From positions 1 through 64,000 of IMG/VR virus record IMGVR_UViG_3300005747_000012: DNA of 64,000 nt; one strand, given 5' to 3'. The stretch comes from a virus. Position numbers and translations under genes: made by a program. A model generated the notes under the pieces. It saw only the letters and a list, made by a program, of their open reading frames with translations, searched no databases and was not told the DNA's origin. Below, in pieces: positions 4,351-54,906 of the stretch. Position 1 is the stretch's first letter; every line of letters starts with the position of its first letter.

Positions 4351-4545
4351 GTCTGCACCTCCTTTCTAAAGTCATATTAATTGATCTTAGCTAAAAAGTC
4401 AACATCAAAAACAAACTAAAAAAATATTTTTTTAATTAAAATAATTGTTGACAGGGTAGGTAGGGTGTAGTAATATTTCATTGAGCATAACTAACAAAGG
4501 AAAAATTATGCTAACAATATTACATATTTCACAGGAGGTAAATTA

Positions 4546-4755
4546 ATGACTAGGAATGAATTGGAAAATGAAGTAGTAGAACAGTGCAACAGTATTATTA
4601 ATGAAATTGAATGTCGTGATGGACAACCGTTTGATGGCGAGCTATTTGATGCGTTATGTTATCTTGACAGTGTAAAAGATGCTCTTGAAATGTTAAATAA
4701 TGATGATTATGAGGATTACACAAAGATTTTTAAAAACGAGAATGAATATGAATAA
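4546..4755 (+). CDS. Hypothetical acidic protein
   Basis: AGGAGG RBS; downstream of TTGACA-N17-TAATAT at about 4448. Confidence 0.65.
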   Translation: MTRNELENEVVEQCNSIINEIECRDGQPFDGELFDALCYLDSVKDALEMLNNDDYEDYTKIFKNENEYE

Positions 4756-4930
4756 TTTAAAAACTATTGATTTTGGTGACGGTAATGACGGTACTACAGG
4801 ACTTGAAAACATATCAATAAAACCTGTTGTCAATGGCTATGTCGTGACCTATTCAAGCGATGAAGGTGACGAGGAATTTGTTTATACAAATAAAAAAGAA
4901 ATGATGCTTGACATTAGTAAAAGCTTGTAG
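4748..4930 (+). CDS. Hypothetical protein
   Basis: Overlaps the stop of the previous gene; start reassigned to the ATG at 4748. Confidence 0.55.
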   Translation: MNNLKTIDFGDGNDGTTGLENISIKPVVNGYVVTYSSDEGDEEFVYTNKKEMMLDISKSL

Positions 4931-4953
4931 TAATGTGTTTTTAGGAGGTATTT

Positions 4954-5391
4954 ATGATATTTGAATTATTTTTTGGCGGTATAACACATCATTATATTGC
5001 ATCACAATTAAATTATTGTAATGTCATAAACAAATCAGTAGGCACAATAAAACATGGCTATGGTGCAATATTGATAGGAAACGAAAAAAATAGAGGTGGT
5101 ATAATTGTTGGAAAAGACTCAGCTTGCGGTAATATTTACGGTGGTTTAGGTTCATTTTCTTCTTTTAAAAAAAATTTAAACTTGATAGTGGGCGCATATA
5201 ATGTCAATAGAAAAGAGTTTTATGACAGAAAAATTACACCGTTTTCAGTTTTTGGGGTTACACCAATAGTAGGGTTAAATTATAAATTACCATTGTATAA
5301 AAAAACATACAAAAAGAGAAATTTAAAAATATCATTTGACACCATAGTATCTTTAGGTATAATAACCCATGGGCTATCAGTCACTTTTTAA
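4954..5391 (+). CDS. Hypothetical beta-rich protein, possibly outer-membrane beta-barrel-like
   Basis: AGGAGG RBS; Gly/aromatic beta-strand pattern and C-terminal GLSVTF. Confidence 0.5.
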   Translation: MIFELFFGGITHHYIASQLNYCNVINKSVGTIKHGYGAILIGNEKNRGGIIVGKDSACGNIYGGLGSFSSFKKNLNLIVGAYNVNRKEFYDRKITPFSVFGVTPIVGLNYKLPLYKKTYKKRNLKISFDTIVSLGIITHGLSVTF

Positions 5392-5401
5392 AAGGGAAAA
5401 A

Positions 5402-5794
5402 ATGGGCAGAAATAGGTTTGACATAAGTAAAGAAGAATTAAATAAAAAATTAAATAAAAATAATTTTAACAAAACTAGAACGGCAAAAGATGTTGGCTGT
5501 AGTTTAACCACCTTAAAATCATTGTTAAAACACCATGATATTATTTTTATTGGTAAATCGGGAAATCCTGATATAAAATCAACTATATATTTTAATGAAA
5601 AAAAAATAAAAGAAATGTTTCAAAATGGTGAGAAAATTAAAAATATTGCAAAACATTTTGGGTGTAAAGAATATTTAGTTAGAAAAAGGTTAATTAAAGA
5701 ATTTGGAAGAAAAAAATATGGTTTTTTGAAAAACATTTATAAATGGCACAAAAAAAACAAAAAAAAATTGCCATTTGAATATAAAATAATATAG
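5402..5794 (+). CDS. Tandem helix-turn-helix DNA-binding protein with Fis/NtrC-type first HTH
   Basis: LNKNNFNKTRTAKDVGCSLTTLKSLLKHHDI resembles HTH_8; second HTH IKNIAKHFGCKEYLVRKRL. Confidence 0.65.
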   Translation: MGRNRFDISKEELNKKLNKNNFNKTRTAKDVGCSLTTLKSLLKHHDIIFIGKSGNPDIKSTIYFNEKKIKEMFQNGEKIKNIAKHFGCKEYLVRKRLIKEFGRKKYGFLKNIYKWHKKNKKKLPFEYKII

Positions 5795-6013
5795 GTGAAA
5801 CATGGAAAAAATTAAAAACAAAGAAGAATTTAAAGAAAAAGTTGAAATATACAATATTTTAATTAAAATAGAACGTGCTATCGAAAATAAAGATGATTTA
5901 AGTCTTTCAGTGCTTTTAACTATATTAAAAAATAAAAATATTGAAATAATTCAAGAAAATAATTGACATAACATACTATTTGGTTTAATATGTTTTTAAC
6001 TTAGGAGGTTATC

Positions 6014-6205
6014 ATGTTAAAAATGATAAAAGTATTTATAACTAGTGGCGACATTAAATTGCTAGAAGAAACATTAAATTTATTACTTGATTACGAGGTA
6101 GAACAATTTGACGATGACGCTAGGAATACGGTCATAAGCTTGTCACGACTTATTAATGATTTTAAAGAAGAAATAAAACAAAACACAATAACATTTGACA
6201 GATAG
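6014..6205 (+). CDS. Hypothetical protein
   Basis: Own TTGACA..TAATAT promoter and AGGAGG RBS. Confidence 0.6.
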   Translation: MLKMIKVFITSGDIKLLEETLNLLLDYEVEQFDDDARNTVISLSRLINDFKEEIKQNTITFDR

Positions 6206-6252
6206 TTAAGCTTATGTTAACATGGTTTCAGAGATAACGCATGGAGGTAACG

Positions 6253-6831
6253 ATGCAAAAAATTAGTAAAAAAACACTGGAATTAGTATTAAAAAGTTTT
6301 GAGGCGGTTTCTAAGGATGAAGTAAGGACTAACCTTAACGCAGTAAGATTAGGTAGTGATGATAATGGTTTAATTGTCGAGTCATGTGACGGACATATAT
6401 TATCACGACATTTTGTTGACGAACCAGAATTGACCATTGACGAGGATATTTTGATTCATAGAGATTCTAAGCCTAAATTAAAAAGCTTTATGACTACTAA
6501 CAAACATGACCATTCATTTTTGATTGATACCAATGTAGAGGAAAATAGGAATTTGAGAATATTTACATCTGATAATAGAGATGGAGTAATTTTGTCGGTA
6601 GTTTTTAGAGAATATGCCAAAACTGACTCTATTATTCCAAAAGTCAATCACGATGATTATTTAGAGATTAATTTTAACCCTGACTTATTAGCAAAATTAT
6701 ATAAAAGCCTCAATGGGGAAAAAAGAAACCCTAAAGTAAAATTATTGGTTAAAAAAGACAGTCCAATGTCTCCAATAGTTGTAGAAAGCGGTCGGGATAA
6801 TATTGGTTTACTAATGCCATTAAAAGTTTAA
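6253..6831 (+). CDS. DNA polymerase III beta-clamp-like protein (two domains only)
   Basis: AVSKDEVRTNLNAV, ESCDGHIL, INFNPDLL and C-terminal LLMPLKV parallel DnaN domains 2-3 (AAS.DETR..L.GV, ATDGHRL, IGFN..YL, LIMP.R); GGAGG RBS. Confidence 0.75.
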   Translation: MQKISKKTLELVLKSFEAVSKDEVRTNLNAVRLGSDDNGLIVESCDGHILSRHFVDEPELTIDEDILIHRDSKPKLKSFMTTNKHDHSFLIDTNVEENRNLRIFTSDNRDGVILSVVFREYAKTDSIIPKVNHDDYLEINFNPDLLAKLYKSLNGEKRNPKVKLLVKKDSPMSPIVVESGRDNIGLLMPLKV

Positions 6832-6884
6832 AAAAGCGTTGACAGGTTGTGCTTAGTGTAGTAATATTCTTGTAGGAGGTAGCG

Positions 6885-7076
6885 ATGAACTACATAAAAC
6901 GATTAGAACATGAATTGCAGGAAGCACAGCTTGACAAGCAAAAAGCCGATGAGATTGTAAATGAACTTTTTAAATATCTCAATAGCTCCAAATTTCAATG
7001 CGGTGACGAATTAGACAATTATGTCAATATTAAAGATATAATGACATATCTTGACAGAATTAGGAGTGTACTATGA
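6885..7076 (+). CDS. Hypothetical protein
   Basis: TTGACA-N17-TAATAT promoter and AGGAGG RBS. Confidence 0.65.
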   Translation: MNYIKRLEHELQEAQLDKQKADEIVNELFKYLNSSKFQCGDELDNYVNIKDIMTYLDRIRSVL

Positions 7077-7375
7077 ATATTGACCCGTTTACATTAATCC
7101 AAAAAGGTGACATTGTTCAACTAAACGACATGGGTTTAAGTTATTTTGAACCAGAACGATATGCAAATGTTGACCTTGAAGTTATTAATACTCGAATTGA
7201 CCACTATGAAAAAGGAGAGTGTACTAAAGATAATGATGGCATTGAAAGACCAAATTGCACTTGTTATAGGTTTTTTGACCTACGACAAATTGGCACCGAT
7301 ATTGTTCTTAAAGATGCTATGTTTAATGAGTTAACTTTAAAAGAAATTAAAAAAAGCGTTGACAGTGACAGGTAA
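7073..7375 (+). CDS. Hypothetical protein
   Basis: ATGA overlap with the previous gene. Confidence 0.6.
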   Translation: MNIDPFTLIQKGDIVQLNDMGLSYFEPERYANVDLEVINTRIDHYEKGECTKDNDGIERPNCTCYRFFDLRQIGTDIVLKDAMFNELTLKEIKKSVDSDR

Positions 7376-7509
7376 TTGTAGTAATATAATTATAGAAACA
7401 AAGCACAAAGGTAACGATGGATGCTAACGAAATGGTTGTAAATATAATATTAACTATTCTTTGCCTAACGGCTTTTGGATTATTGTGGGCTTTTTGGAGT
7501 GACATATGA

Positions 7510-7581
7510 AATCCACATACCTAACACGAAATTCACATACATATAATAGAAATCCATATAGGGGGGCTAGAAATCCACATA
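7510..7581. repeat. Four phased AATCCACATA-like direct repeats
   Basis: Copies start at 7510, 7530, 7551 and 7572 (20-21 bp period). Confidence 0.75.
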
Positions 7582-8550
7582 CACCTATCCTCATAGACGC
7601 TTTTAACGCTCCTATAACGGTAGGCATTGAATATCACCCAGAATGGAATGAAATACAAGAGAAGGCAAATATGCAAGTCTCAGCGTGTATAAATGAGGTA
7701 ATCTTTAACATAAGACAGGATGATAATGTACCTGTGGAATAAGGCAAATAACTTTTGCCAATCCACACACCTGCTAAGTCATTAAAAATGTGTGTCAAAA
7801 AGGTATAACCTACCGAAATCACATATGTCATAACAATTAACAAAGGATATTGTGTTCTAGTATTGCCGTAAAATTGTGTCAAAATCTCGTTTTTTGACCC
7901 ACGCACACCACGACACCGACTCAAGACAGAGCCTCCCAACCACGGTTCTAAATTTTTTTTATCTGACGAACCCTGCCGACATTATAATATCACACACTTA
8001 TCGACACACCCCTGCAAAAGCCGTGCCAGAACAGCCCTGCCGAAAATGGCATCGGAATTGTATATGCAAAGACCGTGCCAAAACACTTGGCATGAATCTT
8101 GCATAAAAATGTAAGTTATTGATTTTGCGTAAAAATATATAACCTCCTGTTTTTATTGATGCGCCCAGAATCTTTGGCACTTTCTAATAGTTACCATGAT
8201 TTTAAATTTCAGTCAAGCCATTTTTTTCATATGCAAAAGTCGTGCCAAAAAATAGTTGTTGACAAAATTATTTTTTATCTATATACTTCCGAAAATAAAT
8301 TATTTTTTTTGTTGACAATGTTGGTTTTGTCATGTATACTTCGCCCGTGCGCCCATGCAAGAAGTGTGCCAAAAATCGGCCATTTTTTTTTGCCTCAACT
8401 TACAGTATACAGAAAGAAAGTGCTCCCGTCAACCCCTTTTTTTAATTAAAAATAAAATTAATTCTTTAAAATTTTTATTGAATTAATAGTTGACACAACT
8501 TCCCACTTGCGTTAATATGTAGATGGGACTAAAAAACAGGAGGATAACCC

Positions 8551-8961
8551 ATGAATATTTCACAACAAGTAGTAATTTTGAGTGCTGAAAATACTAAACT
8601 CACACCGGAACAAAACTGTCAGCGCACAAAAATTTTAAAGCATTGTCTGGAGGATTGTAACCTGCTTTTCGGAGAATCTTTAGGGATGTATAAGGGAGAA
8701 CCCGAAACATCATTTGTAGTCATTATCAATAATTCTCATGACTTGCAAGCACTGAAGGACTTTGCTTTTAAAAATTTTAATCAGGAATCAATTCTGTACC
8801 AAGATGCTAATCAGGAAGCACATCTTATTTTTAACAATGGTGCAGAGGAACGACTCGGACGACTAGAAGAAGTAACCGAAGAAGAAGCTCGTAAACAAGA
8901 TGCGTTTACATTGTTTAGTGGGCGTTATTACGTTACAAAACAAAGGCAACTAGGACATTAA
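8551..8961 (+). CDS. S-adenosylmethionine lyase (T3 SAMase-like), anti-restriction protein
   Basis: ILSAEN..L..EQN..R, G.YKGEPETSF, FNQESILY, ERLG.LEEV and DAFT..GRYYV follow the T3 gp0.3 SAMase motif order; first gene of the early module. Confidence 0.8.
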   Translation: MNISQQVVILSAENTKLTPEQNCQRTKILKHCLEDCNLLFGESLGMYKGEPETSFVVIINNSHDLQALKDFAFKNFNQESILYQDANQEAHLIFNNGAEERLGRLEEVTEEEARKQDAFTLFSGRYYVTKQRQLGH

Positions 8962-9015
8962 TGCAAGATTCATGCCAAGTTTTCTCATTTCCTTGGCTTG
9001 AATTATTCCTCCATG

Positions 9016-9043
9016 AAAGCAGGGTGAAAACCCTGCTTTTTTT
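9016..9043 (+). terminator. Rho-independent terminator
   Basis: AAAGCAGGGT-GAAA-ACCCTGCTTT followed by a T-run. Confidence 0.85.
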
Positions 9044-9224
9044 ATATTATAGTATACACGACAAAAATAAACTAGTCAAGGGGTTGACAAGAAAGTTTTT
9101 ATCATGTATACTTCTCCAAAAACTGGCACGATTCTTGCAAGAAAAAAAGTGCGAAATAATCAAAATAGTGCTTGTAATTGCAAGCACATTGCTTTACAAT
9201 GAATACACTAGCAAGGAGGAAACA

Positions 9225-9776
9225 ATGCTAATACAAGAAATTAAATTAAACAACGGTGAAAAACTAGAAATTTACCACGACGAAGGTTGTTTTGACCCTA
9301 GAAAGGAATTTGATAATGTGACTGAAATGATTTTCTTTCACAATAGAATGAACGTGGGCGACAACCATGACATTGACCCTGACAATTATTCTAGCTTTGC
9401 AGGCATGATGAATGAAAATGTAAAAGACGGTGACTTGGCAATGCCAGTATTCTGTTACTCTAAACGATGTTTTGAGTTGTCTTTAACTCCTTTTTCATGC
9501 CCGTGGGATAGTGGGACTCTTGGCTTTATTGTAGTCAGGAAAGCTACGATTGACTATGAATTCGATGGAGATAGAGAAAAAGCATTGAGAAATCTAAAGG
9601 CAGAGCTAAACACTTACAACGACTATCTAAACGGACGCACTTATGGCGGCATTATGTACGATGCTGAAGGACATGAGATTGACGCTTGTTGGGGCTTCTA
9701 TGGCAATGACTTTGAAGAGAATGGTATCTATGACAATTTTGGTATAAACAAAAATAATATAGTGGAGGTAGCATGA
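9225..9776 (+). CDS. Conserved acidic phage protein (PWDSG motif)
   Basis: Start reassigned from 8961 to 9225 (AGGAGG RBS, own promoter); CPWDSG.LGFI, YNDYLNG.TYG and CWGFYG motifs. Confidence 0.75.
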   Translation: MLIQEIKLNNGEKLEIYHDEGCFDPRKEFDNVTEMIFFHNRMNVGDNHDIDPDNYSSFAGMMNENVKDGDLAMPVFCYSKRCFELSLTPFSCPWDSGTLGFIVVRKATIDYEFDGDREKALRNLKAELNTYNDYLNGRTYGGIMYDAEGHEIDACWGFYGNDFEENGIYDNFGINKNNIVEVA

Positions 9777-9939
9777 AATAGGCACGGTGCAAAAACCGTG
9801 CCAAATCCACATACCTTATTCCACATAGTATACACGAATAATTCCACATACACAAGAGGAAAAATAAATTAAAAAAACTTGTTGACATATTGGGTTAATT
9901 GATTTAATATAATATTAACAAAGCATTAAGGAGGAAACA

Positions 9940-10257
9940 ATGCGAAACACACAAAACCTAGCAGACTTCGGCTATAGAGAAAGAGAAGAAGCGGCAAAGC
10001 TATTGTCATCACTTGGAACGTCAAAGGATAAAACTAAATATTTTGGCGACAGAGGTGTAGCGGTGGAATTTAACCCATATAGCACTTACGTTTTTTTAGT
10101 TGATGAGGATTACAATGTTGCTATGCTAAATGTTGACGATGAACTAGAGGACTTTCACACTTGCCCTAATTGTGGCGGTGAGGGACTAGCCTCAGACTTT
10201 AGGGAAGACAACACGGACGAATGTTGTCATGAATATGCAGACGAATTAAATATTTAG
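9940..10257 (+). CDS. Hypothetical early protein with CxxC
   Basis: Promoter, AGGAGG RBS and downstream hairpin. Confidence 0.75.
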   Translation: MRNTQNLADFGYREREEAAKLLSSLGTSKDKTKYFGDRGVAVEFNPYSTYVFLVDEDYNVAMLNVDDELEDFHTCPNCGGEGLASDFREDNTDECCHEYADELNI

Positions 10258-10622
10258 GGGAGTTGTTAACCCCTAAACTCCTTGGTTAGTATTGGTTGGG
10301 TTGGCACGGATATTGCATCTGTGCCAACTTTTTCTGGCATCTAAGAGTTACCATAAATCACACACTTTGTCAACATAAAAAATAAATTATTTTTTTATTT
10401 GACAGTGTAAGTTTTGTCATGTATACTCGGGCCTTTCCCCTGCAAAAACTGTGCCAACATTTTCTCAGCATCACCTTATAGTATATAGTACAAAACAAAC
10501 ATACACAAGAAAAATCGTAAAAAAATCTTTTTTTATTTTTACTCTCTTTTCAAGCACTTAGGGATTTGACAATATTCTCAAAAAATGCAATAATGACTTA
10601 ACACTTAACAAGGAGAAAACAA

Positions 10623-10838
10623 ATGAACACAAACGAAAAATTGGAAATCTTCAGAAAACTTTACTGCCTTGGTCTTTCAGACATTGAAAAGGTGTTTGAG
10701 GGTTCAGGGTTGGAGGAACACCTCTCTAGCACTTACATGAGAAGTCGTGACGAACATGGCTTTTATGGCAACTTTCACTTTCTCTTTCAGCTTGACTTAG
10801 AAAACGCTGAAAAACTCCTGAAGAGGATAGGGCTGTAA
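10623..10838 (+). CDS. Hypothetical early protein
   Basis: Promoter, AAGGAG RBS and terminator hairpin. Confidence 0.75.
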   Translation: MNTNEKLEIFRKLYCLGLSDIEKVFEGSGLEEHLSSTYMRSRDEHGFYGNFHFLFQLDLENAEKLLKRIGL

Positions 10839-11015
10839 AGCCCTACCTCAAAAACCATGCCAAGAAATGTCTCCCTCTTGGCATGGTTTTAACAGCATAT
10901 AAGTATACATTAAAAAACATAAAAGCACAATCCCAAAAATAAATTAATTATTTTCTTGCGTTATTAGTTGAGATATGCAATAATTTTATATAATCCAATC
11001 AAACGGAGGAAAAAA

Positions 11016-11201
11016 ATGCAAAGATTAAGAATAAAAATTGAAAAAGAAAACGGTGAATTTTTAGATGAAATTATGGTTTATGATGAAACTACTTTGACAG
11101 AAGATGAAGCCGAAAATTTAGACTTTGACCCTGATGCTGTTGAAATTTCAGAAGTCGATTACTGGATTAAAAAAGCGTTTAAAATAATGGAGGAACTTTA
11201 A
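11016..11201 (+). CDS. Highly acidic small early protein (possible DNA mimic)
   Basis: Start reassigned to 11016 (GGAGG RBS); strongly D/E-rich. Confidence 0.7.
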   Translation: MQRLRIKIEKENGEFLDEIMVYDETTLTEDEAENLDFDPDAVEISEVDYWIKKAFKIMEEL

Positions 11202-11202
11202 A

Positions 11203-11427
11203 ATGCACTTAAAACTACACTATGACGGTACTAAACTGTATTCTTATGAATGGTCTAGGGTGATACCTCTTTATAGATTGCATTATTATGTCAGAGAAGA
11301 GGGATATACTTTTGAAGTGGTAAACAAAAAAGGTAAAGACTTAACTAAAAAATATTTATGCAAACTTGCCTCAATGCAATTAGAAAATTATTCTTCAGAT
11401 GATCTTTATTTTATGATAAAAAAATAA
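11203..11427 (+). CDS. Hypothetical early protein
   Basis: GGAGG RBS; KLYSY...YVREEG.TFEVVNKKGKDLT faintly recalls PhaR N-terminal DNA-binding domains. Confidence 0.6.
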   Translation: MHLKLHYDGTKLYSYEWSRVIPLYRLHYYVREEGYTFEVVNKKGKDLTKKYLCKLASMQLENYSSDDLYFMIKK

Positions 11428-11573
11428 GGGGAATTTTTCCCTACATTTTAGTATACAGCATAAAACACTAAAGCACAAGAAGAAAAAAAAGTTTTTTTAT
11501 ATGTCGATTTTTCTTGTGTTTTATTGCGTTATGCTTTAAAATAGTATTAACAGATTAACCAACGGAGGATAAA

Positions 11574-11819
11574 ATGAGACAAATGAAAAACAAATCTTAC
11601 GGAACTGTTGTAAACGTGAAAGAGCTGGCCATCACTAGAAATTTTTGGGAATACTTCATTACAGATGAGGCTTTCACCGATGATATCGTGTGTGCGGTAG
11701 TTTCAGGCTTTGAATGTGAGATGGGCGATATCAGCCTCTCAGAAATTAAGCCTCACGTTATCACAAGGACAAGCGACCTAATGGAAGCTATGCCTGCACC
11801 CGGATGGGAATGGGTGTAA
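11574..11819 (+). CDS. DUF2958-like protein
   Basis: YFITD...VVSGFECEMGDISLSEI pattern; GGAGG RBS. Confidence 0.65.
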   Translation: MRQMKNKSYGTVVNVKELAITRNFWEYFITDEAFTDDIVCAVVSGFECEMGDISLSEIKPHVITRTSDLMEAMPAPGWEWV

Positions 11820-11959
11820 CCCAAGGGCCGAAAGGCCCTATCTTATAGTATACACAAAGAAAAACACGCCGTCAACCATTTTATTAATTTATTTTTTGTT
11901 GTTGACAGAATTTTATCTTTCGTATTATAATATCATTAACACTAACCATAGGAGGAAAT

Positions 11960-12619
11960 ATGGAAAAGATATTAGGTCAAGAACAATACGGTGCTATCAT
12001 TATGGCAGAGATGAAAGGCAATAAAATAGAATCTATCTCATCTGGCTATATTGAACACTCAGACAACACTTATGACGGTAACACTTACTTATCGAAAAGC
12101 TCATGGGGCGGTACTTACACCGACTTTCAAGGGAACAAGTTTGAAAGAGGCATGGAACTCCCTGAAGACTTCACGCCTGCCTTCCAAGACGAGGGAGCAG
12201 AACAGATTATGCTCGAAGAAGACTATTATCACGCTGAAGGTCATCACTGTGAAAAGTGCGGTACTTTTCACGACACAGAACAATATTATGACGTATCATT
12301 CGTAATTACAGAACACGGTGGTTTCTACTGTAAAACTTGTGTGCCTGCTGAAGAGCTTCTAGTTGAGGTCACTGAAAGTGAGGATATTTTTAGAAGTAAA
12401 GACATGGTGGGAACTGAAGTCCCAGAGAACTTTGAAGAGGTCGAAACACTTTTCTGTGATTCATCGGGGTTTGGCAGCACAACAGAAAGAGCATTGACCA
12501 AAGAGCAAGCAATAAGACGCACGGAAGAGCTTATAGACGAGCATGGAACGCTTTATTCAGGACTGACAGGGATAGGTCAGTTTCAAGTGTATGTGACACT
12601 TTACAGGGAAGTAGAGTAA
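11960..12619 (+). CDS. Acidic early protein with two CxxC-type Zn pairs
   Basis: HCEKC and YCKTC; promoter, RBS and terminator at 12626-12649. Confidence 0.75.
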   Translation: MEKILGQEQYGAIIMAEMKGNKIESISSGYIEHSDNTYDGNTYLSKSSWGGTYTDFQGNKFERGMELPEDFTPAFQDEGAEQIMLEEDYYHAEGHHCEKCGTFHDTEQYYDVSFVITEHGGFYCKTCVPAEELLVEVTESEDIFRSKDMVGTEVPENFEEVETLFCDSSGFGSTTERALTKEQAIRRTEELIDEHGTLYSGLTGIGQFQVYVTLYREVE

Positions 12620-12625
12620 AACAAT

Positions 12626-12649
12626 AGGGGCGAAAGCCCCTTTTTTTTT
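12626..12649 (+). terminator. Rho-independent terminator
   Basis: AGGGGC-GAAA-GCCCCT followed by a long T-run. Confidence 0.9.
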
Positions 12650-12776
12650 ATTGACAATAAAAAATCCACATGATATACTCACCAAGTCCACATACATTGG
12701 CACGAACTTTGCATACAAAATAGTTGTTGACAATATAATCCACATATTATATTATAATATTAACAACGGAGGATAT

Positions 12777-13055
12777 ATGATTTATTTAATGCAAATCATG
12801 AATATGTTAAACAAAAAAGAAAGGACGGACTTAATCCACATACTAGAAGACTTATCTTTTGAACTAGAAGAAATGGGTTGGAACAGCGATCCAGAAGGAT
12901 TAATTAGCGATATTTTATTTAACCATTTTGGGTTTGAAATGGAAGACCCTAAACAATTGACTTGGTTGACTGATTGGGTGTTAGAAAAACAGAACTCTCC
13001 TCAATCTTTTAAAGCATTACTCACAACAGTCAACCTACAAAAAGGAGAGGCGTAA
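12777..13055 (+). CDS. Hypothetical early protein
   Basis: Start reassigned to 12777 (GGAGG RBS); the longer ORF runs through promoters. Confidence 0.7.
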   Translation: MIYLMQIMNMLNKKERTDLIHILEDLSFELEEMGWNSDPEGLISDILFNHFGFEMEDPKQLTWLTDWVLEKQNSPQSFKALLTTVNLQKGEA

Positions 13056-13131
13056 GCCTCTTTTTTTATTTTTTTTAAAAAAACTGTGCTATACTCATGG
13101 GCAAAAAGAAAGGGGCGATTGCCCCCTTGGT

Positions 13132-13344
13132 TTAGCGGTATTCGGCGTTGAGTACAACTCTATCGCCTACTAGGGTGAACACAGCAGGTCGCTGATTGGT
13201 TGGTTGGGAAAACTCAGCAAGAATTTTATAGGTTTGTGACCTAGACTTGCCAATGGCTTGCACCACTTCTTTTTTGTGAAGTATCTGATGCGGTGTATTT
13301 CTAAGTAATACAATAATGTTCAAAATAGTATCAGTTTTTGTCAT
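13132..13344 (-). CDS. Small winged-HTH DNA-binding protein
   Basis: ILNIIVLL...KKEVVQAIGKSRSQTYKILAEF; own TTGACT promoter near 13385, AGGAGG RBS and hairpin at 13110-13127. Confidence 0.7.
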   Translation of the reverse strand: MTKTDTILNIIVLLRNTPHQILHKKEVVQAIGKSRSQTYKILAEFSQPTNQRPAVFTLVGDRVVLNAEYR

Positions 13345-13566
13345 GTTACCTCCTAATAAAATTATCTCATATCTTGAGAATTAAGTCAACAACAATCGAC
13401 ACACAAAAAAACTTTTTTTTAATATTGTGCTTTCTATTTTTGTATGATATACTCGCAGAGTGTGGTAAAAACTTGGCATGAATCTTGCATAAAAAAGTTT
13501 AAATAAGGAATTGACAGTTATCGTCAAAAATGCAATAATGGGGTAACACTAACAAACGAGGATAAT

Positions 13567-13758
13567 GTGTCAATTTTTACAAATAAACAAAATTTTGCCG
13601 ATAGACCCGAAATTATGAGAATTTTAGAGGCATTAGAAGTAGCTCATGCTAAACAAGATGAATTGAGCGCATCTATCCTATTAACTAGACTTTCTCAATA
13701 TAATATCAAATTAGAGGCAGAAAGTTCTTGTAATAAAGTTGAAAATGCACTACAATAA
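13567..13758 (+). CDS. Hypothetical early protein
   Basis: Promoter at 13511, GAGG RBS, GTG start. Confidence 0.65.
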   Translation: MSIFTNKQNFADRPEIMRILEALEVAHAKQDELSASILLTRLSQYNIKLEAESSCNKVENALQ

Positions 13759-13774
13759 TAAAAACGGAGGAAAA

Positions 13775-13984
13775 ATGGAAAAGAGAGAAAAGCTAGAAAT
13801 TAACAACCAAACTGAAGTATTTTTTGAGGCAGTATTTGAACGTGATGGTTATGCTGATAAAATTGTCATTGAGGACAGCATTGGTAAGCTACAAATTGCG
13901 GTCAATGTGTGGACAAAATGCGGTCAATGGAAACTAAAATCAGCCGATAAGGTTGAGAGAACAATAGCTAGATTAATAGCTTAA
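13775..13984 (+). CDS. Hypothetical early protein
   Basis: GGAGG RBS; start reassigned to 13775. Confidence 0.65.
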   Translation: MEKREKLEINNQTEVFFEAVFERDGYADKIVIEDSIGKLQIAVNVWTKCGQWKLKSADKVERTIARLIA

Positions 13985-13995
13985 ATGGAGGAAAT

Positions 13996-14172
13996 ATGGA
14001 CGTATACGAAAAAAATGGATATGATAACAGAAAACATTATCTCAATTGTTTAGCCGAGGATTTTGGAATAGAAAAATCAGTGGTTTACGAAATGGCATCT
14101 ATTCTAGGTCAAAATGAGGATTTTGACGGGCTAGTAACGACAGTTGAGGATTATGTAGACGGTTATCTATAA
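13996..14172 (+). CDS. 58-aa acidic conserved phage protein (not in the ORF track)
   Basis: MDVYEKNGYDNRKHYLNCLAEDFGIEKSVVYEMASILGQNEDFDGLVTTVEDYVDGYL; GGAGG RBS. Confidence 0.75.
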   Translation: MDVYEKNGYDNRKHYLNCLAEDFGIEKSVVYEMASILGQNEDFDGLVTTVEDYVDGYL

Positions 14173-14344
14173 TCCTTGGTTAGTGTGTTGCAAGAACCGT
14201 GCCAACTTGGTGCGGTTCTTCTTTTTGAGAGAAGTATACGCCACAAATCCATATAGCACAACCATTATTTTAATTTATTTTTTGTTGTTGACAGCTATCG
14301 CCAAAAATGCAATAATGACTTAACACTAACATATTGGAGGAAAT

Positions 14345-14689
14345 ATGAATTTAGTAAACAGACCATCAGTAGGTGAAACAAACGGACTCTTAGACGGTCA
14401 CAAATACCACAGTGAGTTCACAGCAAATATACAGCGTCAAGTACCTTGGACAGCCGAGGGACTAAAAATAACACGCCTGAGACTACTCTCAGACCACGGC
14501 TTTCCATTTTGGGAGGTTAGTTATTGTCATGGCGTATTAAATGGCGAACCTGTAGAGGTTATTTTGCCTTTTAGTGAGTTACCAAAGAAAAATAGAAATA
14601 GAGCTATCGTAAAATATGCCATTAAAGATGGCATATTTGCGAAGGGGCTAGGGATTCTCTCCCCCCTAGTCCAAAGTACCCTCTGTTAG
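14345..14689 (+). CDS. Hypothetical early protein
   Basis: Promoter at 14288, GGAGG RBS and terminator at 14697-14733. Confidence 0.75.
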   Translation: MNLVNRPSVGETNGLLDGHKYHSEFTANIQRQVPWTAEGLKITRLRLLSDHGFPFWEVSYCHGVLNGEPVEVILPFSELPKKNRNRAIVKYAIKDGIFAKGLGILSPLVQSTLC

Positions 14690-14787
14690 TGTGTTCGAGG
14701 GGCAGTAAAAAAAATGCTGCCCCTCATTTTTTTATTTGACACGACAGCCGACCCGTGCAATAATGGTATTAACGAAACGGAGGAAAT

Positions 14788-14940
14788 ATGGAAACACTAA
14801 TCGAAAAAATCAACGAACTAGAAATTAAAGCAAAGGTCTACTCTGACAACTATGGCCCTAATTCTGACGAGGTAAAGGCAATTGACCAACAAATTGCTAA
14901 AATTAACCTAGAAATACTTGACATCATGTGTCCCGAATAA
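14788..14940 (+). CDS. 50-aa coiled-coil early protein (not in the ORF track)
   Basis: METLIEKINELEIKAKVY...; promoter at 14736, GGAGG RBS and terminator. Confidence 0.7.
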   Translation: METLIEKINELEIKAKVYSDNYGPNSDEVKAIDQQIAKINLEILDIMCPE

Positions 14941-15138
14941 GGGACACTTTTTTTCTTGTGTTTTTTGCTTTTGTCGTGTATACTCTCCCAATGTGGAGAG
15001 TTGACAGGGGAGCGTAAGCTCTTGTTTTAAGTAGTATATCACACAAAACGTGCAAGCACCAGAGGAAAAATAAAATAAAAAAACCTATTGACAGCGTTGC
15101 CACTATATGAGACAGTGGTAACAGCTAATGGAGGAAAT

Positions 15139-15291
15139 ATGAATAAAATGGAAAAGCGATTTTTAATTAATTTGATCAACCACGAAATAGGAAAATTAAG
15201 ACTAAAAATACCATATTGCGACAAGCTTAAACCAATACAAGAGCGTTTGTATTGGCTTGAAAAAGTTAAGAGAAAAATTAAAAAGGTGTAA
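15139..15291 (+). CDS. Small basic early protein
   Basis: Start reassigned to 15139 (GGAGG RBS). Confidence 0.6.
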   Translation: MNKMEKRFLINLINHEIGKLRLKIPYCDKLKPIQERLYWLEKVKRKIKKV

Positions 15292-15293
15292 CA

Positions 15294-15515
15294 ATGAGTA
15301 ATATAGCAATTGTGCAAACAGAAAGATTTTACTATGAATTAAAAACAAGAGATCAGGCTTGGGATTATGGTATAGATTTCAAAGATGAATATGATCAAAA
15401 ATATAATATGATTGATATTCCTGCGGATATAATTAACCAATATTTTAAGAACAAAAGAGAGTTCGACAAGTTACAAGAATATCTTAGTCAAATGTTTGAT
15501 AAACTTCCTAGATAA
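15294..15515 (+). CDS. Hypothetical early protein
   Basis: Follows the previous gene directly; AAGGT RBS. Confidence 0.65.
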   Translation: MSNIAIVQTERFYYELKTRDQAWDYGIDFKDEYDQKYNMIDIPADIINQYFKNKREFDKLQEYLSQMFDKLPR

Positions 15516-15543
15516 TGTTACTATATAAACTAATGGAGGAAAT

Positions 15544-15843
15544 ATGAAGACATTTTTAGTTGTAGCACAATATGAAGAAAATTACGGGGCACATTCTTGG
15601 GGTGGTCAAGGCGAATGCCCTCAGTATTGGAAGATGAAGGGCAGTGATGATTTTATCGTGACCGCCAAGGACAAATATGTTGCGGTTGAAATGGTCAAGC
15701 CGCACCTGTATGACAGCGATTATGCCAAGTCTTATATCGTTCACATGGAAGAGGTAGGGTCAGGCTACCAGACAGAATTTGAACGCTCACAGCTTAAATA
15801 TGAGGGCGAGATAACCTATCCAGCAAAACGACTTGGGGTGTAA
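15544..15843 (+). CDS. Conserved phage protein (ENYGAH..G.GECPQYWK.KG family)
   Basis: Recognisable motif QYEENYGAHSWGGQGECPQYWKMKG; GGAGG RBS. Confidence 0.75.
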   Translation: MKTFLVVAQYEENYGAHSWGGQGECPQYWKMKGSDDFIVTAKDKYVAVEMVKPHLYDSDYAKSYIVHMEEVGSGYQTEFERSQLKYEGEITYPAKRLGV

Positions 15844-16056
15844 AAACCCCTTGTGCTTTTTGCTTTTGTCGTGTATACTACTCAACCCTGACACAATATC
15901 AGATAGTTGGCACAACTATCTTCCCTAGTATACACCAAAAACCTTACGCCTTAAAGAAAATAATGAAAAAACTTTTTTAACTAAAGTGCATTATTTTGTT
16001 GACTCAAAATTCGAGATGCTTTATAATTTCATTAACACTAACACGGAGATAAAAAA

Positions 16057-16347
16057 ATGCTAACAGTAAACGGACACACTTTGAACATTGAGAGACATTT
16101 TTACATGGACGAACTTGAAGAGACTTACTTCGAGGTTAAAAAACCTTGTGGCAACTATTGTCACATGGATTGGTCAGGTTGGGGCGCACAGCCGACTTCT
16201 GAGGACTTTGCACTATGGATTGAACTTGGATATCCAGACAGGCATCACGCTGCCTTAGAAGCTAAAAGAGAGGCTACAGGCATCAAGGTTTACTCGCCGC
16301 TTGATAGCAAAGATTTACAAACAATTAAAGAGTACGAGGGGCGATAA
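16057..16347 (+). CDS. Hypothetical early protein
   Basis: Promoter at 15999, GGAG RBS and terminator hairpin. Confidence 0.7.
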   Translation: MLTVNGHTLNIERHFYMDELEETYFEVKKPCGNYCHMDWSGWGAQPTSEDFALWIELGYPDRHHAALEAKREATGIKVYSPLDSKDLQTIKEYEGR

Positions 16348-16454
16348 GCCCCTGATATCAGGGCAAAAACGAAGATAGTTTAAAATAACTATTGTAATCC
16401 ACTGGCAGTGTGTTATTATAATATTACAGAAACACACAAACAAAGGGAAACAAA

Positions 16455-16631
16455 ATGAATGAGAGAACAGAAAAATTAATCGCTGAAAACGTACAAATGG
16501 AAGTCGCTTTAAAAATTATCAACAACTATCTTAATACCGATGCAAGCGATAAAATTAAACTCAAGCTCGTAACAAAGGAACTTGAGGAGATTCAAGAAAA
16601 GATAGGAAGAAAGTTTTTAGAGAGGGCTTAA
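16455..16631 (+). CDS. 58-aa helical early protein (not in the ORF track)
   Basis: MNERTEKLIAENVQMEV...; upstream TATAAT promoter; stop codon lies in a hairpin loop. Confidence 0.65.
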   Translation: MNERTEKLIAENVQMEVALKIINNYLNTDASDKIKLKLVTKELEEIQEKIGRKFLERA

Positions 16632-17122
16632 CAGCCCCCTCTAAGGAGGTTAATAACATGGTACAACTATTTTTTAAACTTTTAATTATTCTTTACATGG
16701 TATCAATGATTCAGGAGGGTTTTCTATGAGCAAGTCAACTGCTATCTTTTTATTTACGATCGGCTATTTAATTTATATTGGTTACGTTGCCACGCAAGTA
16801 TCTGAAAGGATTAATAAAATAAAAACAATAACCATAACTAATAAACAATAACAATTATATATAATACTAATATATATAATTATATATAGGCGTAGGAACT
16901 GGCTCACCGCCCCACCGTTCAGCACCACTGGACATCGTAGCAAAAAAATACCGCCAACAATTCTTGTCAGTTCCTATGCCTCATATTGTTGGCACTCACT
17001 CCTGCCACAAAAAGTTGGCACTTTTTCTACTGACCATTCTTTAGACAGGTGTATAATTTTTTGACAGTATTTTTTTTAATTATGTTGTTGACAGTGCAGA
17101 GTTCTATCTATATACTGTAGGA

Positions 17123-17169
17123 TAAAGCCAAAACCAAAAGCCAAAACCAAAAGCCAAAACCAAAAGCCA
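17123..17169. repeat. Tandem 13-bp repeat AAAAGCCAAAACC (about 3.5 copies)
   Basis: Read directly from the sequence. Confidence 0.9.
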
Positions 17170-17349
17170 TATGGCATATATATTGCATATACAATACTGA
17201 TACCACACAGGGGGGAGGGGTATGCAAGAAACATGCCAAAACCGGGGTTTAGGAGTCCCTGATTTGAGATTGGATACCTATGCCCGAAATACAGCGAGGA
17301 TCATTTTTAACTTTTTCAAATACCCCCCACCCCTTTTTTTAAGTAGTTA

Positions 17350-17420
17350 GGGTCCCATATATAGGGGGTGGGTCCCTTTTTTATTTTTTAGGGTCCCATA
17401 TTGGGTCCCATACGGGTCCC
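17350..17420. repeat. Five GGGTCCC quasi-palindromes
   Basis: Copies at 17350, 17370, 17391, 17403 and 17414. Confidence 0.9.
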
Positions 17421-17432
17421 TTTTAGAATATT

Positions 17433-43664: not shown

Positions 43665-44114
43665 TTAACAGTCGCCCAAATCAGCCCCACAGTTTTTGCA
43701 TGAGTAAAACTGCAAGTTTTTACTAATTACATTTTTGTATTTTTGAGGGTTTGAGCAGCATCCTGATTTATCAAAATCTTTTAAAATTGCAGCTTTACTT
43801 TTGCCAAAATGTTTTCCTTCAGGATTTAAAAGTCTTCTTCTCATCATTTCAAAATATGTCTCTTCATCTTTTTCCAAATGTAACGTGTAAAGAGCATGAG
43901 CTACTTCCATTGTCTTTTTAGCTAAAGAAGACTCGTCTATATCACCAATAGGATCAGCAGTGGATAATTCGTCACGCTCTGGCCAGCCACCATTATTGTA
44001 AGTAGCTGAATATACTGGTTCATTAAATCTTGATTTTGTTTTTTCCGACATGTTTTTCTCCAATTCTTGCGCTGTCATTTTTGTTTTTTTACCATTAATT
44101 TTTATATTCCACAT
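43665..44114 (-). CDS. Hypothetical protein with C-terminal Zn ribbon
   Basis: Start reassigned to 44114 (AGGAG RBS); CC...CKNCG; own sigma70-like promoter near 44140-44165. Confidence 0.6.
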   Translation of the reverse strand: MWNIKINGKKTKMTAQELEKNMSEKTKSRFNEPVYSATYNNGGWPERDELSTADPIGDIDESSLAKKTMEVAHALYTLHLEKDEETYFEMMRRRLLNPEGKHFGKSKAAILKDFDKSGCCSNPQKYKNVISKNLQFYSCKNCGADLGDC

Positions 44115-54824: not shown

Positions 54825-54906
54825 GCTTGTATGGTGGAATTGGTAGACACAGAGGGCTTCAACCCCTTGGGCTAAGGCCGTGCGGGTTCGAGTCCTGCTG
54901 CAAGCA
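54825..54906 (+). tRNA. tRNA with Leu-type body and UCA anticodon (putative opal suppressor)
   Basis: Acceptor GCTTGTA/TGCAAGC plus A73; D arm GTGGAATTGGTAGACAC; anticodon arm GAGGG-CTTCAAC-CCCTT; long variable arm; T arm GCGGG-TTCGAGT-CCTGC; no encoded CCA. Confidence 0.85.

Follow-up and report, generated by a model that had tools for sequence, protein, structure and literature searches.

Two classes of promoter-like sites in the early region

The IMG/VR virus record IMGVR_UViG_3300005747_000012 comprises 129,267 bp of an uncultured phage with 33% G+C, and its first 64,000 nucleotides (nt) are the window analysed here. Between positions 8259 and 17116 of this window, the spaces between genes are populated by a recurring sigma70-like promoter sequence whose -10 hexamer is TATACT and which has no gene directly behind it, and the nature of these TATACT sites is the subject of this work. 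The portal protein of the phage is 44% identical to that of Myxococcus phage Mx1 and approximately 25% identical to Bacillus phage portals, and the genome also encodes a PolIII-alpha-type polymerase, a ribonucleotide reductase, a chaperonin, ClpP and ClpX-like proteins, baseplate proteins and intein-bearing helicases. Neither megablast of positions 8000-17400 nor tblastn of a 446-residue structural protein gave a match against known phage records, and a ribonucleotide reductase query returned only three metagenome-bin contigs, at 51% identity and with inconsistent labels, which gave no host. Near-identical DNA is present in freshwater, estuary, sediment and marine metagenome runs, and five metatranscriptome runs hold 8-18% of the sampled words, shares too small to count as expression evidence. 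No terminal repeat or overlap was found at the contig ends.

We defined a strong sigma70-like site as one with at least 5/6 matches in the -35 element, a 17-bp spacer and at least 10/12 matches overall. Thirty-three of the 44 such sites in the genome fall within 1.5-19.5 kb, which therefore marks this segment as an early region dependent on host polymerase. The stretch from 20 to 129 kb, with 11 of the 44 sites, is nearly without strong sigma70-like promoters, and this scarcity implies that middle and late genes must use another promoter type.

A search for the composite motif TTG-N20-TATACT returned 17 exact matches in the window against 0.98 expected (standard deviation 1.09; 100 shuffles with a maximum of 5, none reaching 17), and all 17 lie within the 8.9 kb between 8259 and 17116. 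Genome-wide, TTG precedes 18 of 82 TATACT hexamers at the 17-bp spacing, and 17 of these 18 are in this same 8.9-kb stretch. The TATACT hexamer alone is not enriched (47 found versus 40 expected), so that the enrichment signal belongs to the composite motif, and a repeat search of the window recovered the same promoter families independently. An original prediction, made from the letters of the window, had listed about 19 gene-less sites with an invariant TATACT, a 17-bp spacer and mostly TTGACN or TTGTGY as the -35 element. The 17 exact matches occur at precisely its coordinates and strands, nine with TTGACN and eight with TTGTGY. Its two remaining reverse copies, at 15033 and 15927, do carry TATACT but have poor -35 elements (TGGTGC and TTTAAG, respectively), and we found one forward copy outside its list, at 13067-13095, whose -35 element is TATTTT in the window and TTGTTT in relatives. 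The class totals 20 window sites, 17 exact and three weaker, all of which are intergenic and divide evenly into ten forward and ten reverse copies. The predicted 17-bp spacer is present in all 20, as it is in all 21 copies of a distant relative; a single 16-bp variant occurs in the near relative L054.

The same prediction held that these sites coexist with a separate, gene-driving class, and a scan that left the -10 box free upholds this. When the intergenic DNA of 8200-17200 was searched for TTGNNN-17-NANNNT, each of the 17 TATACT sites proved either to have no same-strand start codon ahead of it or to be separated from the next one by at least 98 nt, whereas 15 gene-proximal promoters end 17-33 nt before a start codon and include no TATACT. 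The -10 boxes of the latter are diverse: AATAAT (5), TAATAT (2), TATAAT, TACAAT, TAAAAT, TATTAT, GATAAT and others. This split of 17/17 versus 0/15 is highly significant (Fisher p = 1.8e-9) and holds for pooled distinct sites from the window and seven relative loci, where TATACT is found in 23 of 28 sites without a Shine-Dalgarno (SD) sequence and start codon within 48 nt versus 2 of 20 gene-proximal sites (p = 9e-7). The TATACT class thus does not consist of ordinary mRNA promoters.

Anatomy of the TATACT sites

To describe the class we used 26 distinct copies from the window and the seven relative loci, where distinct means more than four differences over the -35 hexamer and spacer (23 nt). 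Conserved positions in this set are an AT-rich tract at -51 to -40, T-35, T-34, G-33, S at -31, a T-tract at -22 to -19, T-14, R-13 and the TATACT hexamer itself, with nothing conserved downstream. TTG is present in 25-26 of the 26 copies, position -14 is K in 25 of 26, and a full TTGACN or TTGTGY -35 element is found in 17 of the 20 window copies. TATACT matches TATAAT at 5/6 positions, and a promoter scan rates the sites at 10-11/12. The -10 elements of T7 A1 and lambda PL share the same ...ATACT ending. To judge from its sequence, then, the layout of the TATACT class is that of a primary-sigma (sigma70-family) promoter with an UP-like element. A canonical extended -10 element (TGnTATACT) occurs in 16 of 21 distant-relative copies and 4 of 20 window copies; in 12 of the 20 window copies, TG is instead immediately adjacent to the hexamer (TGTATACT). 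We also considered a GTATAC palindrome or methylation site and rejected it, as G precedes TATACT in only 14 of 20 window and 7 of 21 distant-relative copies.

That the hexamer is invariant in 26/26 distinct copies, versus the diverse -10 boxes of the gene-proximal promoters, would also be expected if TATACT were read by a different form of polymerase, either one carrying a sigmaS-type stationary or stress sigma factor or a host polymerase modified by a phage early protein, in which case the two classes would fire at different times or in different host states. TATACT has been put forward as the sigmaS -10 consensus, later CTATACT and KCTAYRCTTAA (PMC5650638), and the sites described here share with it the identical hexamer as well as K at -14. 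Similarly, the -10 variants TAATAT and TATACT are reported to differ by genome region in a Staphylococcus Kayvirus (PMC7698491). Nonetheless, the hallmark C at -13 of sigmaS promoters is never present (0/26; G in 17 and A in 9), the downstream TTAA at -6 to -3 is unconserved, and a strong TTG -35 element at a strict 17-bp spacing is typical of a primary sigma factor. Moreover, when 122 phage proteins were scanned against Pfam, no sigma factor, RNA polymerase or sigma54-activator (Sigma54_activat) domain and no polymerase-binding family was detected among them. We therefore regard reading by a different holoenzyme as improbable.

Selective constraint on the hexamer and its position

We next compared the window with its near relatives L053, L054, L055 and L066, which are 88-99% identical where aligned; L056, which belongs to the same contig as L051 and overlaps L054, was left out. 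Mismatches amount to 1.7% in the TATACT hexamer (5/288) and 4.3% in TTG (6/141), compared with 14.9% in the rest of the -35 element (21/141), 11.3% in the spacer (92/816), 12.8% in the first 30 nt downstream (156/1222) and 8.2% at codon position 3 (335/4103), and the contrasts between these rates have p values from 4e-10 to 7e-6. Judged by these alignments, purifying selection acts on the hexamers but not on the spacers or downstream flanks. At the position of the divergent pair 9051(-)/9084(+), L054 instead has a non-homologous pair that again consists of a reverse and a forward TATACT copy and is flanked by the same terminator and the same sigma54-like box, an element that we describe below. 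Given that selection acts on the promoter-shaped element and that its position, unlike its transcript, is retained, a function in polymerase binding or in initiation itself is suggested.

The class extends to more divergent phages. L057 and L058, at 73% protein identity, hold three and one TATACT copies, respectively, with new spacers, and the distant contig G001 (52 kb), which has approximately 66-70% nucleotide identity to the window in three short stretches only, holds 21 copies with unrelated spacers, all at 41.9-50.2 kb, where a reversed-pattern control yields 1+1. The G001 copies form back-to-back pairs with 3-4 bp between -35 boxes and face-to-face pairs with 25-73 nt between -10 boxes, sigma54-like boxes lie downstream of them at +18 to +28, and the gene-proximal -10 boxes of this contig are likewise diverse. 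One of its face-to-face pairs, at 43811-43852 (L098), encloses three GTTAAC palindromes at 11-bp spacing and has the look of an operator array. Loci at approximately 55% protein identity and at least 40% GC (L052, L059-L064) lack the class. A search of viral contigs with a 16-mer promoter core gave 46 single matches, of which only one locus (L038) is a relative, and a search of viral contigs with a 219-residue protein gave no relatives.

Placement of the TATACT sites relative to terminators and genes

The positions of the TATACT sites, together with those of the gene-proximal promoters and of the sigma54-like boxes lying downstream of TATACT sites, are collected in Table 1. Transcript starts were assumed throughout to lie 7 nt after the -10 hexamer. 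Reverse copies stand back-to-back with the promoter of the next gene, with gaps from -35 to -35 of 57, 26, 57, 25, 35, 26, 26, 26 and 43 bp, such that the gap is 25-26 bp in five of nine cases. They start 7-12 nt beyond the preceding terminator hairpin, and the first bases that they are predicted to transcribe are consequently the complement of the terminator T-run. Forward copies start 0-9 nt after a terminator hairpin (12626-12641, 14928-14947 and 15835-15850). Four face-to-face pairs (8335/8404, 10422/10480, 14979/15033 and 15874/15927) have 47-63 nt between their -10 boxes and presumed starts 34-50 bp apart, with no gene behind either partner in any of the four, and one back-to-back TATACT pair (9051/9084) has its -35 boxes 4 bp apart.

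Table 1. Positions of the TATACT sites, gene-proximal promoters and TATACT-associated sigma54-like boxes in the window
Feature	Position	Strand	Context
TATACT promoter	8259..8287	+	TTGACA-17-TATACT; first of forward tandem pair
TATACT promoter	8312..8340	+	face-to-face with 8404(-), 63 nt between -10 boxes
TATACT promoter	8404..8432	-	TTGACG; same-orientation sigma54-like box 32 nt downstream
TATACT promoter	9051..9079	-	TTGACT; 10 nt after terminator 9015-9040, fires back through it; -35 is 4 bp from 9084(+) -35
TATACT promoter	9084..9112	+	sigma54-like box 11 nt downstream, then gene-proximal promoter and gene 9225-9776
TATACT promoter	9827..9855	-	TTGTGT; 26 bp from -35 of gene promoter 9882; fires into hairpin with sigma54-like box (+23)
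TATACT promoter	10399..10427	+	face-to-face with 10480(-), 52 nt between -10 boxes; mosaic breakpoint 10427
TATACT promoter	10480..10508	-	TTGTGT; sigma54-like box at +23
TATACT promoter	10902..10930	-	TTGTGC; 25 bp from gene promoter 10956; fires into 17-bp hairpin (z = -6.7)
TATACT promoter	11450..11478	-	7 nt from bidirectional terminator 11427-11442
TATACT promoter	11847..11875	-	TTGACG; 26 bp from gene promoter 11902; mosaic breakpoint 11842
TATACT promoter	12651..12679	+	abuts terminator 12626-12641; sigma54-like box at +18, then gene promoter
Extra TATACT copy	13067..13095	+	weak -35; between two convergent terminators; points at 3' end of reverse gene 13132-13344
TATACT promoter	13425..13453	+	TTGTGC; sigma54-like box at +20, then gene promoter 13511
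TATACT promoter	14233..14261	-	26 bp from gene promoter 14288; fires into terminator 14192-14220, stem with sigma54-like box (+28)
TATACT promoter	14956..14984	+	abuts terminator 14928-14947; face-to-face with 15033(-); 97% identical to copy 15851; cassette-recombination site
TATACT copy	15033..15061	-	degenerate -35 TGGTGC; 26 bp from TTGACA at 15088
TATACT promoter	15851..15879	+	directly abuts terminator 15835-15850; face-to-face with 15927(-), 47 nt between -10 boxes
TATACT copy	15927..15955	-	poor -35 TTTAAG; fires into hairpin 15901-15921
Last TATACT promoter	17088..17116	+	no gene ahead; fires into GCCAAAACCAAAA tandem repeat and sigma54-like box (+55)
Gene-proximal promoter class, 15 sites	span 8490..16027	14 forward, one reverse (13361-13389)	
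Sigma54-like boxes (TGGCAY-N5-TTGCA)	8357(-), 9124(+), 9789(-), 10442(-), 12698(+), 13474(+), 14190(-), 17172(+)		11-55 nt downstream of same-orientation TATACT

Most of the reverse copies had been said to fire into a hairpin or sigma54 box, and this is true of all ten. It had further been claimed that no ribosome-binding site or open reading frame follows the TATACT sites directly, and this is borne out on both strands: within 260 nt of the reverse copies there is no strong SD sequence with a start codon, only weak GAGG or GGAG with frames of 2-25 codons, and the nearest SD sequence ahead of a forward copy is at least 95 nt away. The accompanying caveat that some forward copies could be tandem promoters for the next gene was also well placed, in that seven of ten reach its SD sequence at 95-205 nt; the copies at 8282, 13090 and 17111 do not reach a gene SD sequence. 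Among the 20 predicted RNAs from +1 to +70, six fold better than shuffled sequences (z <= -2), four of which come from reverse copies reading terminator stems. These 20 RNAs have no shared fold, and a search of the predicted RNAs in Rfam gave a single match with E = 0.16, below its threshold. Terminator-like sites on the reverse strand are found within approximately 90 nt for 15927, 11450, 9827 and 11847, and none is nearby for 8404, 10480, 14233 and 15033.

These distances bear on the possibility that the RNA itself is the effector, with forward copies acting as distal second promoters and reverse copies producing cis-antisense RNAs that anneal to the upstream early mRNA at its 3' end, which would alter early-mRNA stability and help time early-gene shut-off. 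Three of the seven forward copies that reach an SD sequence (9107, 12674 and 13448) do so without a strong terminator in between, and the reverse copies, from their starts just past the hairpin, would transcribe the terminator complement and then the gene 3' end. For 11847(-), a reverse-strand terminator-like site inside the upstream gene (11768-11751) predicts an RNA of approximately 90 nt. A role as a source of antisense or tiny RNAs, which the original prediction had also put forward, would fit the reverse copies, and there is precedent in the 20 antisense species with defined starts reported for five Pseudomonas phages (PMC10914365). On the other hand, the transcribed sequence is among the least conserved parts of the region (12.8% mismatches) and has no common fold, the absence or remoteness of reverse-strand terminators for four copies would make the RNA lengths very uneven, and a distal mRNA promoter would hardly be expected to form face-to-face pairs with starts 34-50 bp apart. 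We consider RNA effectors unlikely. Lambda oop, a single defined 77-nt RNA with its own terminator, resembles the reverse copies in that its promoter lies just beyond a gene 3' end and points back into the gene; it differs in that there are approximately ten such promoters here, with uneven predicted RNA ends and unconserved transcribed sequence.

The paired arrangement recalls coliphages 186 and P2, in which promoters also converge over a few tens of bp and polymerases interfere with one another. In those phages an operon lies behind each face-to-face promoter and the outcome is set by a repressor, whereas here the partners are geneless in 4/4 pairs, and the arrangement recurs at many boundaries between cassettes. 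The original prediction had suggested that the TATACT sites form a polymerase sink. A sink of this kind would hold host holoenzyme (and, via the boxes, sigma54 holoenzyme as well) and draw polymerase off host promoters, especially after replication. The sites are near-consensus (11/12) and have AT-rich upstream tracts, facing pairs (34-50 bp between starts; 25 nt between -10 boxes in one G001 pair) would trap polymerase, and comparable strong phage early-promoter cassettes are described in PMC2839356 as hardly clonable without promoter mutations. A sink needs no fixed placement, yet placement beside terminators and gene promoters is kept even where the sequence has been replaced, as in L054, and the sites occur only within the cassette module instead of being distributed genome-wide. 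Some 20 sites per genome are also few relative to the number of polymerases in a cell. With both the fixed placement and the in-place replacement by a non-homologous pair unexplained, the sink is poorly supported and we judge it very unlikely.

The prediction's third suggestion, that polymerase starting from these promoters pulls the DNA into the cell, draws on T7, in which transcription-driven DNA entry proceeds from the tandem co-directional A1-A3 promoters at the leading end. The concentration of strong host-type promoters in a single early region agrees with such a role. One-way promoters would be needed, however, and we found ten in each direction over 9 kb, including four facing pairs, with most reverse copies meeting hairpins within tens of nt, so that this suggestion is poorly supported too and in our estimation scarcely credible. 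T7 also has minor and leftward E. coli promoters, which are recognised by the host polymerase and some of which have no assigned gene.

Sigma54-like boxes accompany the TATACT sites

The module contains a second repeated element, TGGCAY-N5-TTGC, which occurs 17 times in the genome and 15 times at 7.9-17.4 kb. These 15 boxes lie at 8014-17238, six forward and nine reverse, and all of them continue as TTGCA, mostly in the form TGGCACG-N4-TTGCAT. In sequence, they agree with the sigma54 (-24/-12) consensus TGGCAC-N5-TTGCW, with GG and GC one helical turn apart. At eight of the 15, a TATACT -10 element of the same orientation ends 11-55 nt upstream, and a convergent TATACT copy faces only two. Several are built into terminator stems (e.g. 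14190-14204 and 9789-9803), as is also the case in L057, and with one mismatch in 228 aligned sites (0.4%) they are the best-conserved elements of the region.

A TATACT promoter and the sigma54-like box 11-55 nt downstream of it in the same orientation could together be the selected unit, serving as a holoenzyme-competition switch that is repeated approximately ten times per genome. Under such a scheme, a parked sigma54 closed complex would form a reversible roadblock or terminator clamp that is cleared when the TATACT promoter fires; the two holoenzymes would be unable to share a coupled pair, and the parked complex would therefore act as a roadblock. We regard this coupled switch as rather improbable. 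Were it true, the phage would read the state of host sigma54 and its activator and could thereby switch insulation and antisense transcription on or off in every early cassette simultaneously.

Pseudomonas phage YuA likewise has promoter sequences of both the sigma70-like and the sigma54-like kind in one genome (PMC10914365). The arrangement here differs in its density, with approximately 15 sigma54-like boxes in 9.5 kb, and in that eight of these directly follow a geneless sigma70-type promoter of the same orientation and several lie in terminator stems. In two unrelated viral contigs, L115 (IMGVR_UViG_3300028735_000003, a 353-kb contig) and L127, 12 and 7 sigma54-like boxes, respectively, lie within approximately 4 kb, and these two contigs have no TATACT-class sites. 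Clusters of this kind may thus occur in other large phages.

Repeated promoter copies and the exchange of early cassettes

Homology between the window and its relatives breaks at 10427, 11842, 13496, 14988/14995, 15078 and 15850, mostly at promoter edges. L055 and L066 are without 14988-15850, which holds three genes, and in both of them position 14984 is joined to 15880 inside a shared promoter copy; the two recombining copies, 14955-14984 and 15850-15879, are 97% identical. The repeated promoter copies are therefore demonstrably places where cassettes are gained and lost.

This behaviour matches that of the PeSL (promoter-early stem-loop) cassettes of T4-type phages (Arbiol et al. 2010, PMC2839356). 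In each system a strong sigma70-like promoter, preceded by an AT-rich tract and coupled to a terminator stem-loop, is present in repeated copies, the copies cluster in a hyperplastic region where the genes are small and of unknown function, and cassettes are inserted or deleted by recombination between copies. A PeSL ends in the SD sequence and start codon of the gene it drives, whereas TATACT copies never abut an SD sequence. Here, moreover, each gene has a separate proximal promoter, half of the copies point backward, facing and back-to-back pairs occur and the -10 element is invariant. Our literature searches, whose coverage excluded subscription-only papers, found no description of such a TATACT arrangement.

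The position of the breakpoints at promoter edges (10427, 11842, 14988/14995, 15078 and 15850) and the PeSL-like gain or loss of a three-gene cassette between two nearly identical copies could be taken to mean that the sites are chiefly recombination substrates, or alternatively binding sites for a phage regulator, with promoter likeness being secondary. The single reverse-strand gene of the module, 13132-13344 (-), has its own TTGACT-17-GATAAT promoter and encodes a 70-residue protein that has no Pfam or PHROG match and might regulate one of the repeat families. Recombination requires long identical stretches, though, and most copies have nothing but TTG and TATACT in common, their spacers being free to vary. 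A regulator site, for its part, would need neither the strict TTG-17-TANNNT geometry nor an upstream AT tract, and its core GTATAC palindrome is limited to the 14/20 window and 7/21 distant-relative copies given above. We find both forms of this explanation quite unlikely.

Neighbouring genes and repeats

The first gene of the cassette module, 8551-8961 (+), encodes a SAM-lyase-family protein (PF23780, E = 2e-22), which belongs to the family of the T3 anti-restriction SAMase, and a homologue stands at the matching relative place in the distant relative (L094 238-635). The neighbouring early sub-module at 4400-7500 is polycistronic and has promoters of a third flavour, TTGACA-17-TAATAT, in which GTAG often precedes the hexamer; the sub-module contains no TATACT copies and no sigma54-like boxes. 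Iteron-like AAATCCACATAC repeats, which we take to resemble a DnaA box, occur at 7506-7600, 9803-9850 and 12665-12745. Four of them lie in the gene-free stretch to the left of the module, others overlap TATACT promoters and gene promoters, and the distant relative has the motif too, at L094 3340-3430. To the right, the module is bordered by a gene-free stretch, 16852-17432, which contains a 13-bp tandem repeat, GCCAAAACCAAAA (3.5 copies, 17124-17169), GGGTCCCATA repeats and two facing sigma54-like boxes, and is approximately 93% conserved in relatives.

Further afield, ARAGORN places a tRNA with anticodon TCA (labelled SeC), possibly a UGA-reading tRNA, at 54825-54906 (+), at the end of the structural module. 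A 719-residue protein, L049:15150-17309 (-), corresponding to 119150-121309 of the genome, carries a minimal CRISPR polymerase (mCpol) domain at its N-terminus (PF18182, E = 5e-19), and Hint/LAGLIDADG intein-type inserts are found in the proteins L048:7888-10497 (helicase-type, ResIII) and L049:3687-5678.

A possible role in bounding early cassettes

Taken together, the anatomy of the sites, their separation from the gene promoters, their conservation, their geometry and the recombination at their copies are direct properties of the sequences compared. From these we infer polymerase binding, transcript starts and an effect of that binding, and the explanation we favour, at a probability of roughly 0.45, is that the TATACT elements are genuine primary-sigma (sigma70/sigmaA-family) promoters that function as non-coding boundary elements controlling or insulating the early cassettes. 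They would add to the gene promoters a second layer of signals, non-coding and located where one monocistronic early-gene cassette borders the next. A reverse copy sits just after the previous terminator and back-to-back with the next gene promoter, usually across a shared AT-rich stretch of approximately 26 bp, and as it points back at that terminator, polymerase located there would face it head-on. Such a head-on polymerase could stop read-through from the neighbouring cassette and so provide insulation, and divergent firing may help open the adjacent gene promoter. Polymerase from a forward copy would either meet the facing reverse copy 34-50 bp away, leading to mutual transcriptional interference within face-to-face pairs, or run via the sigma54-like box into the next gene and so act from a distal promoter. 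The short antisense RNAs over the 3' end would then be a by-product.

Several points weigh against boundary control by primary-sigma promoters. Insulation leaves the exact TATACT, as opposed to TATAAT, unaccounted for, which hints at factor discrimination or a different holoenzyme. Several of the intergenic regions with reverse copies already have a strong intrinsic terminator (9015-9040 and 14192-14220), so that reinforcement is not obviously needed there, and the intergenic regions 14689-14788 and 16347-16455 have no TATACT copy. The sigma54-like boxes may be the real functional core of the region, with the TATACT promoters serving them. The term sigma70 denotes here the general primary-sigma consensus rather than that of a particular host. 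Finally, TATACT was the search criterion for the sets from relatives, which makes its invariance there partly a matter of construction, and the unconstrained scans answer this bias only for sites with TTG at 17 bp.

Early regions are usually read as strings of promoter, gene and terminator, and the early module of this phage contains a second promoter class, equal in number to the gene promoters, that has no gene to drive. The cassette exchange also extends PeSL-like shuffling beyond the T4-type phages, to a lineage for which Myxococcus phage Mx1 has the nearest portal protein. The split between TATACT and non-TATACT sites offers a single-base handle on the class, the C at -8. If these sites do control polymerase traffic, they would represent a compact natural insulator for densely packed, individually tuned and probably toxic early genes, and would provide a tidy system for transcriptional interference and sigma competition.

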